From positions 70,373 through 134,372 of the forward strand of contig DAIDKE010000001.1 in the NCBI GenBank assembly GCA_027450165.1: DNA of 64,000 nucleotides, read 5' to 3'. Source of the DNA: Candidatus Saccharimonadota bacterium. Lineage in GTDB: Bacteria > Patescibacteriota > Saccharimonadia > Saccharimonadales > Saccharimonadaceae. Below the pieces are notes generated by a model. The model saw only the letters and a program-made list of their open reading frames with translations. It searched no databases and was not told where the DNA came from. The first letter of the stretch is position 1. Every line of letters starts with the position of its first letter. The position numbers were made by a program, and so were the translations under genes. Shown here in pieces: positions 59,752 to 64,000 of the stretch.

Positions 59752-60153
59752 CTATTTTGGGCGAATAAGTTCAATGACATTACCCGGCTTGTTAATAAGC
59801 AGCACAACTTTAATACTTGGCCGCCATTTCAACTCCCGTAAGATACTGGCAGTCACGACAGAGTCCGACAAACGAGTGTGCCTGCTATCAATAACGATAT
59901 ATTTGGATTGTTTTGATGCGCGGCGGACTTGATTACCTACAGTCGTTCTACTATGCCCATTCAGGTTCTTTATTTCCCATAACCTTCCATTAATTTTAAC
60001 GTCCGGTGTTTTACGCTTATAGTCGTCGACCGGCAGTAGAAATTCGACATCAGACTTGAAGTGACGCGCCAAAATCCAAGCGGCTTCAAGTTCGTGCTCT
60101 TCGGGCAACGGACTTAAATCAGCAGGAATAATAACGTTTGGTTGAGATCTCAT
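59752..60153 (-). CDS. PD-(D/E)xK nuclease-fold protein resembling polymorphic-toxin (CdiA-CT/Tox-REase-type) domains
   Basis: 133 aa. HELEAAWILARHF...KTPDVKINGRLWEIKNL (a D-x9-E-x-K motif), followed by NQVRRASKQSKYIVIDSR. Confidence 0.4.
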   Translation of the reverse strand: MRSQPNVIIPADLSPLPEEHELEAAWILARHFKSDVEFLLPVDDYKRKTPDVKINGRLWEIKNLNGHSRTTVGNQVRRASKQSKYIVIDSRHTRLSDSVVTASILRELKWRPSIKVVLLINKPGNVIELIRPK

Positions 60154-60217
60154 AACTTAAGTTAAACTTAAGTATAGCACAAACTTAAAAAACGACTGTC
60201 GCTATAGGTGGTAGAGA

Positions 60218-60691
60218 TTATCTCTTGGTAACCTTTACCATCGCGTGACGAATAACTTGGTCGCCCAGTTTGTAACCAGCTTGCAGTTCTTCGGCAATCA
60301 CCTCTTGGTCGCCTTCGGCCGACTCATCAAATTGAATCGCTTCATGAATTTCTGGGTCAAAAACAGTTCCCGGGGCGGCGTCGATGCGTTTTAGGTTCAA
60401 ACTATCGAGTGATTTTTCCAGATTCTTAACCAGCCCAGCCACACCTTGCGCCCATTTGTTGTCACGCAAATCTTCGGGCATGTAATTTACGGCGCGCTCA
60501 ATATTGTCGATGACCGGCAATAGATGTAAAATCGCCCCGGCGCGGCCAGATTCGCGGGCAAATTGTTTTTCACCGTCGACGCGTTTGCGATAGTTTTCAA
60601 AATCGGCGCGGGTACGCTGCAAATCAGCGGTTAATTCAGCAATTTGTTGCTCAAGTTCAAGTTCTTTTTTGGTTGGTTTTTTGTCGGTCAT
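60218..60691 (-). CDS. grpE: nucleotide exchange factor GrpE
   Basis: 157 aa. ELTADLQRTRADFENYRKR...LLPVIDNIERA...FDPEIHEAI. Confidence 0.92.
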   Translation of the reverse strand: MTDKKPTKKELELEQQIAELTADLQRTRADFENYRKRVDGEKQFARESGRAGAILHLLPVIDNIERAVNYMPEDLRDNKWAQGVAGLVKNLEKSLDSLNLKRIDAAPGTVFDPEIHEAIQFDESAEGDQEVIAEELQAGYKLGDQVIRHAMVKVTKR

Positions 60692-60692
60692 T

Positions 60693-61409
60693 TTACAAAA
60701 TTTCCTCTAACATGGCGCCGGTTTGACGCACTAAATTCATTACGCGGGCATAACTTTGGCGGGTTGGCCCAAGCACGCCAATATAACTGCGGTCACTAAA
60801 TGGTGAACGAAAACGGCTAACAATTAACGTTGCGCCACTACTCTTGCCAATCGGGTTTTCACTACCAATAAAAACATTGAGCGGCTCATTTGGTGCGGCC
60901 TCGCGCAGCCACGGTTCTAGGTTGTCGAGCAGCATCGCCACAGCTTGCGTGTGGGCGCCATTCATAAATTCCGGATGGCTAAACAGGTTACCAATACCGC
61001 TCATATAAAGTTCGTCGCCGATAGTCGCTAGCCCCAGGTTGTGCGTTAAATCAACTAAGCTGTCGACAGCACTGCGAATTGCCCGATCGGCATGGTTCTG
61101 GTAATTAGCGACACGAGCTTCGATTGCCCGAGCGCTGCGATCCAGCCCCTGAAGTTGTGGCTGTTCGCCAGAGCCAGACTCGGTTAAGTGATTAACGTAA
61201 CATCGGTAACCGGCATCGGTCGGCACGCGGCCAGCACTAGTGTGAGGCTGTTCAATCATGCCCATTTCTTCAAGCCGCACCATTTCGCTGCGGATTGTCG
61301 CGCTAGAAACACCGAACAATTTTGCCAGCATCACACTGCCAATTGGCACGGCGACTTCGGCATACTGCTCAATAATTGCTGCTAAAATCTGAAATTGACG
61401 CTCCGTCAT
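60693..61409 (-). CDS. hrcA: heat-inducible transcription repressor HrcA (short form)
   Basis: Start at MTERQFQIL (61409). wHTH region PIGSVMLAKLFGVSSATIRSEMVRLEEMGMIEQPHTSAGRVPT. About 238 aa, versus ~340 aa for B. subtilis-type HrcA. Confidence 0.85.
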   Translation of the reverse strand: MTERQFQILAAIIEQYAEVAVPIGSVMLAKLFGVSSATIRSEMVRLEEMGMIEQPHTSAGRVPTDAGYRCYVNHLTESGSGEQPQLQGLDRSARAIEARVANYQNHADRAIRSAVDSLVDLTHNLGLATIGDELYMSGIGNLFSHPEFMNGAHTQAVAMLLDNLEPWLREAAPNEPLNVFIGSENPIGKSSGATLIVSRFRSPFSDRSYIGVLGPTRQSYARVMNLVRQTGAMLEEIL

Positions 61410-61429
61410 GGGCACATTATAGCAAGAAT

Positions 61430-61456
61430 TTGGCACTCTTTCAAACCGAGTGCTAG
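61430..61456. promoter_or_regulatory. CIRCE-like operator (1 mismatch per arm) upstream of hrcA
   Basis: TTGGCACTC-tttcaaacc-GAGTGCTAG. Confidence 0.7.
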
Positions 61457-61457
61457 A

Positions 61458-62186
61458 TTAAGCGTGCTGGCTTTTGATTTCTTCAAGCAGGTGAGCAGCT
61501 AACTCGCGAATTTCGACATCTTTATGGTGCATCGATTCTGGCTTGCGCGCAATCTCTTCGGCCACCCGCACCGTTCGTTCTAAATCATCATTGATAATGA
61601 AGTGGTAATACGGCGTAGCAATGGCTTTTTCGAGTTCCATAATGGCACTTTCGTGGCGCCGCGGAAACTCGGCCTCGAATTCTTCAGCCGACGCATAACG
61701 GTGCGACAAACGCTCACGCCAAACATCATAACTTGGCGGCAAAATAAAGATTGCGATCACTTGATCAGACATGTTTTTATATTCGGCTACACCCTGAACG
61801 TCAACATCGGTAACCGCGATTTTATTCTCATCATGAATTCGCTGCACTTCGGCGACCGACGTCCCATAAACCGTGCCGTGAACAAACTTAACCTCGATAA
61901 ATTCATGATTATCAACCATGCGCTCAGCCGTCTGAAGATCAACGAAGTGATAGTCAACGTCTTCAATTTCCGTCACGCCGTTGTTGCTGCGTGGCGCACG
62001 CGTAGTGTGCGAAACGACATCGCTAAAAATCGGCTTCTGCAATAAACGATGTTTAACCGTATCTTTACCGGCACCAGAAATCCCAACCAATAAGACAATT
62101 TTTGTGTTCTTAACTAATTCAGCAGCTTCGGGCGACGCCGCGTAATCAGTAATTTTTTGCTCTAAATCCATGACCAAGTATAGCAC
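61458..62186 (-). CDS. gmk: guanylate kinase family protein
   Basis: P-loop GISGAGKDT and SHTTRAPRSNNGVTEIEDVDYHFV. The track start (62186) is a GTG overlapping the lepA stop. An alternative ATG lies at 62171. Confidence 0.75.
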   Translation of the reverse strand: MLYLVMDLEQKITDYAASPEAAELVKNTKIVLLVGISGAGKDTVKHRLLQKPIFSDVVSHTTRAPRSNNGVTEIEDVDYHFVDLQTAERMVDNHEFIEVKFVHGTVYGTSVAEVQRIHDENKIAVTDVDVQGVAEYKNMSDQVIAIFILPPSYDVWRERLSHRYASAEEFEAEFPRRHESAIMELEKAIATPYYHFIINDDLERTVRVAEEIARKPESMHHKDVEIRELAAHLLEEIKSQHA

Positions 62187-63151
62187 TAGTCGCGCTTGAG
62201 CATCACCATAAACGCTTCAGAAGGAATATCAACCTTGCCGAAACGTTTCATACGCTTTTTACCCTTGGCCTGTTTGGCGAGCAGCTTCTTTTTACGCGAA
62301 ACATCACCGCCGTACAAATAGCCGGTCACGTCTTTGCGATAAGCGCCGATGTTTTCGCGGGCAATAAATTTACCGCCAATGCCAGCTTGCAAACTAACTT
62401 CAAAGCTCTGGCGCGGCACGACTTCTTTGAGTTTTTTAACAATATCGCGGCCAAGTGCCAACGATTCTGAACGGTGCGCCATCACCGAAAGTGCATCAAC
62501 CATTTCACCGGACACATAAAAATCAACCCGCACTAAATCTTCGGCGCGATAATCATCGAGCTCGTAGTTAAACGAACCGTAGCCACTAGTAATCGACTTT
62601 AGCTGATCATAAAAATCAGTTAGCAAATTGGCCAGCGGCGCTTCAAAACTAATCAGCGCCCGCTCGTCGATATAACTTAGATTGTTTTGGCGGCCGCGCT
62701 TGTTCACGATCAGCTGAATTACCGGACCAATAAATTGCTGCGGCACCACAATCTCACCCTTAATCCACGGCTCACGAATTTCGCGCACCTTTGAAACATC
62801 CGGCAACTCACTGGCGCTCTTGATATCCAGCTCTTCGCCGCTGGTCAGCGTCACTTGGTAATCGGTCGATGGGTTAGTGACCACCAAATCCAAATCATAT
62901 TCGCGCTCCAAACGTTCACGCACAATGTCCATGTGCAGCAAACCCAAGAAGCCAATTCGCACACCAAAACCAAGCACTGGCGAATTCTCAAGTTCAAACT
63001 GCAGCGCCGAATCGCTAAGGCTCAATTTCTCAACGGCGTCTTTTAAATCCTGATAATCGTCATTACTAACCGGAAAAAACCCGGCATAAACAAACGGTTT
63101 GACGTCTTTGTACCCAGGTAGCGGCTCAACGGCAGTACGCATTCCTATCAT
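62186..63151 (-). CDS. lepA: elongation factor 4 (LepA), C-terminal fragment (domains III-V and the LepA C-terminal domain)
   Basis: 321 aa. MIGMR-TAVEPLPGYKDVKPFVYAGFFPVSNDDYQDLKDAVEKLSLSDSAL...GFLGLLHMDIVRERLEREYDLDLV...YGGDVSRKKKLLAKQAKGKKRMK. Confidence 0.85.
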   Translation of the reverse strand: MIGMRTAVEPLPGYKDVKPFVYAGFFPVSNDDYQDLKDAVEKLSLSDSALQFELENSPVLGFGVRIGFLGLLHMDIVRERLEREYDLDLVVTNPSTDYQVTLTSGEELDIKSASELPDVSKVREIREPWIKGEIVVPQQFIGPVIQLIVNKRGRQNNLSYIDERALISFEAPLANLLTDFYDQLKSITSGYGSFNYELDDYRAEDLVRVDFYVSGEMVDALSVMAHRSESLALGRDIVKKLKEVVPRQSFEVSLQAGIGGKFIARENIGAYRKDVTGYLYGGDVSRKKKLLAKQAKGKKRMKRFGKVDIPSEAFMVMLKRD

Positions 63152-63558
63152 TGAATTTTCCCTAAATCTCCACCAATGACAACTGGTGCAAAGCCATGAA
63201 TTTCATCATATAAAATACCGTCCGGAATGTCGTTCCAAAGGAATATCGACTTGCCAAGTGAAAAAGCATCATACAATTCCAAAAATGTCGCACCACCGAT
63301 GTAATTAGCCTGTCCGTGTTTTTCGAAATTTAATGCCAAAACGGCATCAACCTCATTCGTTACCCTTCGGCTGCGCTCAAACATCTTTTTCTTGAACTCA
63401 CGATGAGCGTCTTCACTTAAGCTCTGCGATTCCTTTTCGGCGTTAGGGTTGTCGTAGCTATTAGGCAACGTAATCTCGTGGCCATGCTTTTCCAGCTCGT
63501 CTTTAATCGGCGGAATTTGGTCGTAGAAGGCTTTGGAGCAAATAACAAATATTTTCAT
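63148..63558 (-). CDS. 136-aa ORF inserted inside lepA (possible nucleoside 2-deoxyribosyltransferase-like / SLOG fold)
   Basis: GAGG SD overlaps the upstream TGA, and ATGA overlaps the downstream lepA fragment. MKIFVICSKAFYDQ...VDAVLALN...ANYIGGATFLELYDAFSLGKSIFLW looks like a Rossmann/flavodoxin-type layout. The fold call is weak. Confidence 0.55.
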   Translation of the reverse strand: MKIFVICSKAFYDQIPPIKDELEKHGHEITLPNSYDNPNAEKESQSLSEDAHREFKKKMFERSRRVTNEVDAVLALNFEKHGQANYIGGATFLELYDAFSLGKSIFLWNDIPDGILYDEIHGFAPVVIGGDLGKIQ

Positions 63559-63566
63559 CTATTACC

Positions 63567-64000
63567 TCAATAATACCTCTGTAGCGTTACCGTGTCACCA
63601 ACCTTAGCGTCGCGTGTGGTGTGCAGATTGGTTACTATATAGCCAATCTCACCAGTTCCAAGCCGCGGATCGGGTGTCATTTTTGGCGCTAAATGCCCAA
63701 CCTCAAGTGCCACGCCGCGGGCGTCGGTAGCCATCATGTGAATTTCATCGCTTTTGGCAATTGTGCCATCGACGACACGCACATACAAAACCACGCCACG
63801 GTAATCGTCAAAATAACTGTCGAAAATTAATGCCCGCGTCGGTTTATTTGAATCGCCTTTTGGAGCTGGGATTTTTTCGACAATCGTACGCAGCACTTCA
63901 TCAACACCAGCACCGGTTTTGGCGCTGATTTTAATAATATCTTCGGGCTTGCAACCTAATAGATTAATAACTTCGGCACTCACCCGTTCGACATCGGCCG
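63567..64000 (-). CDS. lepA: elongation factor 4 (LepA), N-terminal fragment (end of G domain + domain II); 5' end outside the window
   Basis: ...ADVERVSAEVINLLGCKPEDIIKISAKTGAGVDEVLRTIVEKIPAPKGD...ALIFDSYFDDYRGVV...AKVGDTVTLQRYY*. The reading frame is open to the window edge. Confidence 0.85.
   Translation of the reverse strand, partial: ADVERVSAEVINLLGCKPEDIIKISAKTGAGVDEVLRTIVEKIPAPKGDSNKPTRALIFDSYFDDYRGVVLYVRVVDGTIAKSDEIHMMATDARGVALEVGHLAPKMTPDPRLGTGEIGYIVTNLHTTRDAKVGDTVTLQRYY

Follow-up and report, generated by a model that had tools for sequence, protein, structure and literature searches.

Elongation factor 4 (EF4), encoded by lepA, ranks among the most conserved translation factors of bacteria. 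Split genes of the conserved informational class are known from Nanoarchaeum equitans and other reduced genomes, in which the breaks lie at domain boundaries and the halves are dispersed, without cargo. In phage Aeh1, the arrangement nrdA-a/mobE/nrdA-b separates two pieces of a conserved gene, and the split enzyme depends for both its activity and its assembly on the tails that the insertion created (Crona et al. 2011, PMC3045599). Also reported are fractured genes whose halves flank a homing endonuclease and are ligated by trans protein splicing through split inteins (Dassa et al. 2009, PMC2677866). Here we describe a lepA gene in two pieces in a Saccharibacteria (TM7) genome, within a 64,000-nt stretch of contig DAIDKE010000001.1 (assembly GCA_027450165.1), which is called the window below and to which all coordinates refer. 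The split lepA falls under gene fission, or 'genes in pieces', a class already known, and we consider it likely that it is an old and selected natural fission, that its gap is a landing site for low-GC (guanine plus cytosine) accessory genes and that its halves reassemble. The new aspects are that the target is a universal translational GTPase, that the split persists in a large cellular clade with tractable strains and that the fission site is a cargo hotspot.

In the window, the lepA locus consists of three tightly packed open reading frames (ORFs) on the minus strand, each in a different reading frame: an N-fragment, a 136-codon ORF (ORF136) and a C-fragment. The N-fragment runs off the window end at 64000, and its 5' part with the first ~135 residues lies beyond the window. 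On the NCBIfam model TIGR01393 (lepA, 595 positions), the N-fragment covers positions 137-276 (159.7 bits) and the C-fragment positions 279-594 (432.9 bits), each alone scoring under the equivalog cutoff of 533.9; on E. coli LepA (PDB 3cb4), they align with residues 138-278 and 280-592, respectively. The N-fragment matches the Pfam family GTP_EFTU_D2, and the C-fragment matches EFG_III (weakly), EFG_C and LepA_C, with the LepA-specific PF06421 covered over model positions 1-107 of 107 (E=8e-42). The cut therefore falls in the surface linker that joins domain II to domain III, without loss of EF4 residues, and the EF4 domain series (G, II, III, V and C-terminal domain, CTD) is complete but spread over two ORFs instead of one polypeptide. 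The GTPase motifs belong to the region that the window part lacks. The N-fragments of relatives cover TIGR01393 positions 1-278 and match GTP_EFTU, and that of locus L006 reads AHIDHGKST, DTPGH and NKVD.

The junctions on both sides of ORF136 are compact. The N-fragment ends with ...TRDAKVGDTVTLQRYY, giving the terminus VGDTVTLQRYY-TGA with the TGA at 63569-63567, and an 8-nt spacer leads from this stop to the ATG of ORF136 (63558). The junction sequence TGAGGTAATAGATG carries a Shine-Dalgarno (SD)-like GAGG 8 nt ahead of that ATG. ORF136 fills 411 of the ~418 nt that separate the halves, and the C-fragment starts with MIGMRTAVEPLPGYKDVKPFVYAGFFPVS / MIGMRTAVEPLPGYKDVKPF..., which gives it a new 8-residue leader, MIGMRTAV. 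An earlier, sequence-only reading of this DNA had placed the break at the II/III linker with essentially no LepA residues lost, and had reported the fragment coordinates, the TGA, the restart at 63151, a 411-nt ORF on the same strand and coupling signals on both sides (stop/SD overlap upstream, ATGA downstream). The alignments with the model and with E. coli LepA bear out the position of the break and the completeness of the two pieces, and the remaining features are all present in the DNA. No terminator-like site was found between the three ORFs, and no second lepA copy lies within the 64-kb window.

On the basis of this arrangement, a single transcript would carry the N-fragment, ORF136 and the C-fragment, each translated from its own start codon. 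Ribosomes that end the N-fragment would reinitiate on ORF136 by means of the GAGG just upstream of its ATG, and those that end ORF136 would reinitiate on the C-fragment through ATGA. In some relatives, the cargo between the halves is long or lies on the opposite strand, so there the C-fragment must have its own initiation; purine-rich, SD-like runs precede most C-fragment starts. Restoration of a full-length EF4 by an intron, an intein, ribosomal bypassing or readthrough is exceedingly improbable, and these routes were rejected. An Rfam cmscan of 60000-64000, which covered group I and group II introns, returned no family match even at E<=1. There is no Hint or intein Pfam match, and the fragments end exactly at EF4 residues 276 and 279, so that an intein would have no space. 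The three ORFs lie in different frames, another stop follows within four codons after the TGA in the N-fragment frame, and in relatives the gaps extend up to 3.2 kb, with one cargo on the opposite strand.

The locus can thus be set against the known systems. As in Aeh1 nrdA, a conserved gene is split by an inserted gene, both pieces are kept and new tails arise at the junction; the Aeh1 case, however, is a single one in a phage genome with a homing endonuclease as the insert, whereas lepA is a translational GTPase gene split in a cellular lineage with many unrelated cargoes, and the insert in the window is not a nuclease. By parallel with the NrdA tails, the lepA tails may have a role in holding the enzyme together. 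The fractured genes with split inteins also consist of two halves separated by an inserted ORF, but no intein sequence is found in lepA here. Compared with the splits of N. equitans, likewise an ultrasmall episymbiont, the lepA halves stay at one locus that is a hotspot for variable genes. Intact EF4 (E. coli 3cb4; Thermus thermophilus 5imq/4w2e) has the same domains, with identity along the whole length, but is a single polypeptide of ~600 aa, whereas here there are two, broken between the E. coli-equivalent residues 278 and 280.

Within Saccharibacteria, a large group commonly has lepA in the split form. A search of a large protein collection with the C-fragment gave 151 sequences (the best 120 clusters and their listed members), of which 139 are stand-alone pieces of 316-335 aa that start with Met (Val in one) and pass through a short variable leader into (E/Q)PLPGY. 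They include WP_369000276.1 of Ca. Nanosynbacter sp. TM7-074 (320 aa, 'GTP-binding protein LepA / elongation factor 4') and proteins of several Ca. Saccharimonas or Saccharibacteria metagenome-assembled genomes (MAGs), and one 90% cluster of the C-fragment holds 3072 member sequences. The search with the N-fragment gave proteins of at most 251 aa, mostly pieces at contig ends, which were used for tail sequences only. Wherever a contig extends sufficiently far upstream, the same locus also contains an N-fragment of 277-289 aa, and both halves are intact in every split locus where the contig allows this to be seen. The genes run in the order tilS-ftsH-murJ-lepA_N-[gap]-lepA_C, and gmk-like-hrcA-grpE-dnaK usually comes next, as in the window. 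Among 80 related JGI metagenome loci, about 75 have an uninterrupted lepA beside murJ and five are split (L013, L030, L053, L060 and L061). The same murJ-lepA locus is thus intact in most related metagenome loci and split in others, and the insertion is not an isolated case.

The split is also present in a cultured strain. The supplementary tables of Wang et al. (2023, PMC10633639) show the layout SEML1_0727/0726/0725 in Ca. Southlakia epibionticum ML1, which is cultured and transformable; lepA is never named in the main text of that paper. The gene tables of this complete genome name no further gene as LepA or EF4-like, and this speaks against an intact paralogue. The three genes are all classed as 'NE' (non-essential) by transposon sequencing (Tn-seq) in Table S1 of the same paper, and the description of lepA as an essential-type GTPase in the sequence-only reading therefore has to be dropped for this strain. 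No description of a split lepA or EF4 was found by full-text literature search, in line with that reading, which knew of no described split EF4. The split is visible in public annotations; as a gene fission it is conserved, yet apparently undescribed.

The divergence between related split alleles provides evidence of long maintenance. We compared nonsynonymous (pN) and synonymous (pS) differences between the window and L006/L001, which have the same architecture and an ORF136 that is ~75% identical. Between the window and L006, pN and pS were 0.19 and 0.69 for the N-fragment, 0.17 and 1.0 for ORF136, and 0.09 and 0.80 for the C-fragment, with synonymous sites saturated; protein identity was 74% for the N-fragment and 89% for the C-fragment. 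Because pN lies far below the saturated pS, all three ORFs have long been kept under purifying selection in the split state, which excludes pseudogene decay and misassembly. An artefact of assembly, or a recent disruptive insertion heading to gene loss, would agree with the dispensability of lepA under laboratory conditions, but the same split occurs in many independent assemblies from NCBI, ENA, JGI and Logan, in a RefSeq complete genome and in a cultured strain, and the ORFs are intact in relatives; such an origin is very improbable and is effectively already refuted, in agreement with the earlier view that this is no decaying pseudogene.

The DNA between the halves is highly variable. Considering the sequence between the halves, or immediately upstream of the C-half, in all readable split loci, we found about ten unrelated cargo types across 13 split loci, in gaps of 0.4 to 3.2 kb (Table 1). 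In L092, only the C-proximal end of the L091 island is visible. Ten independent assemblies (L099-L108) have an identical C-fragment, and their contigs end 0.4-1.2 kb upstream of it (most at ~1 kb), which suggests strain-variable or repeat-containing DNA that assemblers cannot cross. GC content of the gap is 0-13 points under that of the adjacent lepA_C, with a difference of 2-13 points in 12 of the 13 loci and none in L093; in the window, ORF136 has 42% GC compared with 48-49% in the flanks (lepA_C 48%). The differing gap regions show no shared DNA or protein similarity and no common border element, and neither convincing direct or inverted repeats nor target-site duplications flank ORF136. 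No attC-like imperfect inverted repeats, which an integron-type array would share between its cassettes, were seen at cassette borders in the gap comparison or the window, where a dedicated attC covariance model was not run. We propose that unrelated low-GC accessory genes would be gained and exchanged at this gap, possibly by homologous recombination in naturally competent cells. As ORF136 is one of about ten unrelated cargoes, it is probably not the cause of the split. Of the earlier proposal that a cassette was inserted into lepA, the part that stands is that a cargo gene occupies the gap; the role of ORF136 as the splitter probably does not.

Two of the cargoes have matches among candidate defence families: the T5orf172 plus DUF4357 cargo of L053 matches PADLOC PDC-S57 (E=9e-49), and the NUDIX cargo of L093 matches PDC-S07 (E=1e-11). 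A role in defence is therefore possible for some cargoes.

Table 1. Positions of the features of the split lepA locus in the window, with the corresponding genes of Ca. Southlakia epibionticum ML1 and the gap cargoes of split loci.
Feature	Position or size	Strand	Remark
lepA N-fragment, 3' part	63567..64000	-	End of G domain and domain II; last 143 codons visible
N-fragment stop TGA (63569-63567) overlapping SD-like GAGG (63568-63565)	63559..63569	-	Direct reading
ORF136, cargo gene, 136 aa	63148..63558	-	Predicted nucleoside 2'-deoxyribosyltransferase-like fold
ATGA, C-fragment start overlapping ORF136 stop	63148..63151	-	Direct reading
lepA C-fragment, 321 aa	62186..63151	-	Domains III and V and LepA-specific C-terminal domain
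Guanylate-kinase-like ORF, 242 aa	61458..62186	-	Listed GTG start overlaps lepA_C stop (TAGTG; lepA_C stop TAG 62186-62188)
hrcA	60693-61436	-	After guanylate-kinase-like ORF
grpE	60218-60691	-	After hrcA
SEML1_0727	918 bp		'GTP-binding protein', GTP_EFTU and D2; best structural matches include one named EF4 (PMC10633639)
SEML1_0726	687 bp		Hypothetical (PMC10633639)
SEML1_0725			lepA C-half position in the Southlakia layout (PMC10633639 tables)
ORF136	Gap of window, L001-L004, L006, L096		
GrpB protein, 173 aa	Gap of L030		Overlaps both halves
NUDIX protein, 163 aa	Gap of L093		Overlaps both halves
179-aa protein	Gap of L094/L095		Unknown
Five unknown ORFs	Gap of L091		Over 3.2 kb; 842-kb contig
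T5orf172 and DUF4357 protein	Gap of L053 (239-961)		
Nitroreductase	Gap of L013		
Family-2 glycosyltransferase	Gap of L060		
Bro-N, Fic-like and other ORFs	Gap of L061		Fic-like judged by eye
231-aa ORF	Gap of L099-L108	Opposite	

The split alleles share termini that differ from the linker of intact genes. The signature x-[KR]-Y-[FIMVC] is carried by 51 of 63 natural N-fragment tails, in the context ...GDTV(T/S)L-x-(K/R)-Y-(F/I/M/V/C), after which the tail continues for 0-10 residues that are often Lys/Glu-rich. The C-fragment head follows the pattern M-x(0-10)-(I/V)(I/V/T)-(E/Q)PLPGYK(D/E), whereas intact alleles read, for example, TVKRSHATEPLPGYKLV or TLKKNPAMEPLPGYKDV at the junction. The termini common to split alleles are derived, and both are conserved and hydrophobic.

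The distribution of this signature bears on how the split state spread. Neighbour-joining trees of the C-domain, of full-length LepA (571 columns; 0/100 bootstraps) and of murJ (0/100) all rejected monophyly of the split alleles; the trees are simple, distance-based ones of highly conserved proteins, and murJ adjoins lepA and could be co-transferred with it. L030 groups with an intact-lepA lineage (near L087, L051 and L047 in the lepA tree and near L040, L051 and L042 in the murJ tree) and shows the common junction signature (TLKRYFE..., IIEPLPGYKDV), limited to a few codons on each side. Because its intact relatives carry the linker type of other intact lineages (for example, L011 and L014), L030 most likely gained the split state. 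The window C-fragment is closest to intact alleles (92% identity to L014) and is placed with them in the tree. Sliding windows of protein and DNA identity for L030 and the window allele were uninformative, as synonymous sites are saturated and a best-of-many comparison with intact alleles is biased against a best-of-few comparison with split ones. The pattern would fit if the split junction were transferred laterally, if alleles were converted repeatedly between the split and the intact state, or if selection on the new termini were convergent. Saccharibacteria are naturally competent and recombine DNA through ~1-kb flanks (PMC10633639), so that exchange by way of the conserved lepA halves is plausible.

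A homing-like or site-specific cassette system is doubtful. In such a system, a mobile unit would target the II/III linker, bring its own junction DNA, coding for the Y-Phi tail and for the new start and leader, exchange cargo inside the unit and spread laterally. The same junction signature in alleles of different lepA/murJ lineages, such as L030, the T5orf172/GIY-YIG-type protein of L053, the ten assemblies that break inside the gap region and the natural competence of Saccharibacteria all agree with it, but no conserved border DNA, repeats or attC-like element is common to the cargo types, no clear donor tract appears in the DNA identity windows, and the signature is explicable by common ancestry or by convergent selection on new termini. 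Moreover, most cargoes carry no recognisable nuclease or recombinase: ORF136 has no nuclease family match, and among the ~ten cargoes only that of L053 carries a T5orf172/GIY-YIG-type domain. It is conceivable, if unlikely, that the linker is a dedicated docking site whose split junction moves laterally with exchangeable, EF4-coupled cargo while the tails hold the halves together; if true, this would be a cellular counterpart of the phage genes-in-pieces turned into a cassette hotspot.

Two further length variants were seen in LepA sequences. P0394, an intact Saccharibacteria-like LepA, has an in-frame expansion of ~17 aa in the II/III linker (TLAK-GLTVKQTAEGKHEITMVSGEV-LQPLPGY), so the linker tolerates length changes besides fission. 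The split C-fragment at L061:2376-3461 (361 aa) has an extra insertion of ~35 aa inside domain V (...SYLNLDSHPELVSGSNQSSSGSRVKPGMTGSRAI...).

With respect to the products, we favour reassembly of the two pieces into a working EF4. The N-piece would form a rigid unit of the G domain and domain II and the C-piece a unit of domains III and V and the CTD, and the two would associate non-covalently, in solution or on the ribosome, giving EF4 activity. The hydrophobic termini (x-K/R-Y-Phi in the N-tail and Phi-Phi-E/Q-PLPGY in the C-head) may help this association. Alternatively, the halves might have been sub-functionalised, with the N-piece on its own being a small GTPase associated with the ribosome and the C-piece on its own a factor that binds the ribosome or tRNA. 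Independent expression is implied where the halves lie up to 3 kb apart or are separated by an opposite-strand gene, and the C-fragment is more conserved than the N-fragment (89% compared with 74%, window and L006). Nevertheless, we regard sub-functionalisation as improbable, as the halves are always retained together at the same locus, neither has lost an EF4 domain segment, and both new termini are conserved and hydrophobic.

Several points weigh against a selected, reassembling two-piece EF4 that arose by fission. We infer from sequence both the interaction of the halves and the translation of either, and sequence conservation is the sole argument for their function. Both halves are dispensable in the Southlakia Tn-seq data (PMC10633639), so laboratory data cannot separate a working EF4 from a tolerated remnant. 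The split alleles are not monophyletic in the C-domain, LepA or murJ trees, which makes a single ancient fission too simple a story, and the DNA is too saturated to show recombination tracts. The likeness of ORF136 to known enzymes is moderate in structure (template-modelling (TM) score 0.5-0.7) and lacks a significant sequence match to nucleoside 2'-deoxyribosyltransferase (NDT) families. The functional two-piece protein proposed in the sequence-only reading is thus backed in that both halves are conserved under purifying selection, and a working EF4 would follow from that conservation by inference.

ORF136 itself matches no Pfam, NCBIfam, PHROG or PADLOC family. A sequence search of the PDB and a scan of Pfam members gave nothing significant (best single-member match PF15891, E=0.06), and an exact look-up of the window sequence returned no record. 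It has at least 892 homologues of ~136 aa, and C7, S8, K9, E23, N33, E41, H52, K56, G88, G89, T91, E94, D118 and E119 are invariant in 63 aligned homologues. The AlphaFold2 model has a mean predicted local distance difference test (pLDDT) of 96 and a predicted TM score (pTM) of 0.89. Foldseek matched it to PDB entries 8pqr, 9emx, 4jen and 8of6 (probability 1.00, E ~4e-4, TM 0.5-0.67), the top structural matches being NDTs, the CMP N-glycosidase BcmB, YtoQ and DNPH1, and to a phage N-deoxyribosyltransferase in BFVD (E=1.9e-5, TM 0.66/0.73); the structural matches overall have probability 1.0, E 2e-5 to 1e-3 and TM 0.5-0.73. The model thus has a predicted flavodoxin-like NDT fold.

The predicted fold of ORF136 resembles that of the NDT/DNPH1/BcmB-MilB superfamily. 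A GGxTxxE-type motif is present in ORF136, with E94 invariant, and its GGATFLE sequence seems to resemble the region around the catalytic Glu of the superfamily. Unlike those families, it has invariants of its own (C7-S8-K9, H52 and D118-E119) and no significant match to a Pfam NDT family. ORF136 probably acts on nucleosides or nucleotides as an N-glycosidase or a transferase. Homologues inside split lepA share 68-79% identity with it; free-standing ones (56-67%) occur in Clostridia MAGs and, beside glyA and murB, in another lineage. A scan of genome contigs for ORF136 gave 5 loci. In our reading, ORF136 is an enzyme that processes nucleosides or nucleotides and moves horizontally, and it would plausibly be useful to a salvage-dependent epibiont. 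At L007:2782-6993, in a Clostridia MAG, a homologue with 67% identity adjoins ORFs that look like those of a conjugative element (judged by eye), and its neighbours include a small TnpV-like ORF and an 823-aa ORF.

A selected two-piece EF4 in many Saccharibacteria would mean that domains II and III can do without a covalent link, and it would provide a natural system for dissecting each half of a translocase-like GTPase. Direct tests are within reach, as Southlakia epibionticum ML1 and Nanosynbacter, which have the split, are cultured and transformable. The variable gap marks gene flow in very small genomes and may be a convenient neutral insertion site. In addition, annotators and marker-gene or completeness tools that expect a LepA of ~600 aa may mis-score genomes with a split lepA.

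Some features of the surrounding region deserve mention. The boundaries between lepA_C, the gmk-like gene, hrcA and grpE overlap or abut, and the whole block looks translationally coupled. A promoter-like match lies at 63570-63598 on the minus strand (GTGACA, 17 nt, TATTAT; 10/12 positions, a consensus match only); it sits in the last N-fragment codons, and its -10 element coincides with the codons of the Tyr-Tyr tail. In L091 (9047-10846) and in Southlakia (SEML1_0724), a protein of ~600 aa with GmrSD_N/DUF262, a defence-type nuclease family, lies just downstream of lepA_C instead of the gmk-like gene, so the region downstream of lepA is also variable in some genomes with a split lepA.

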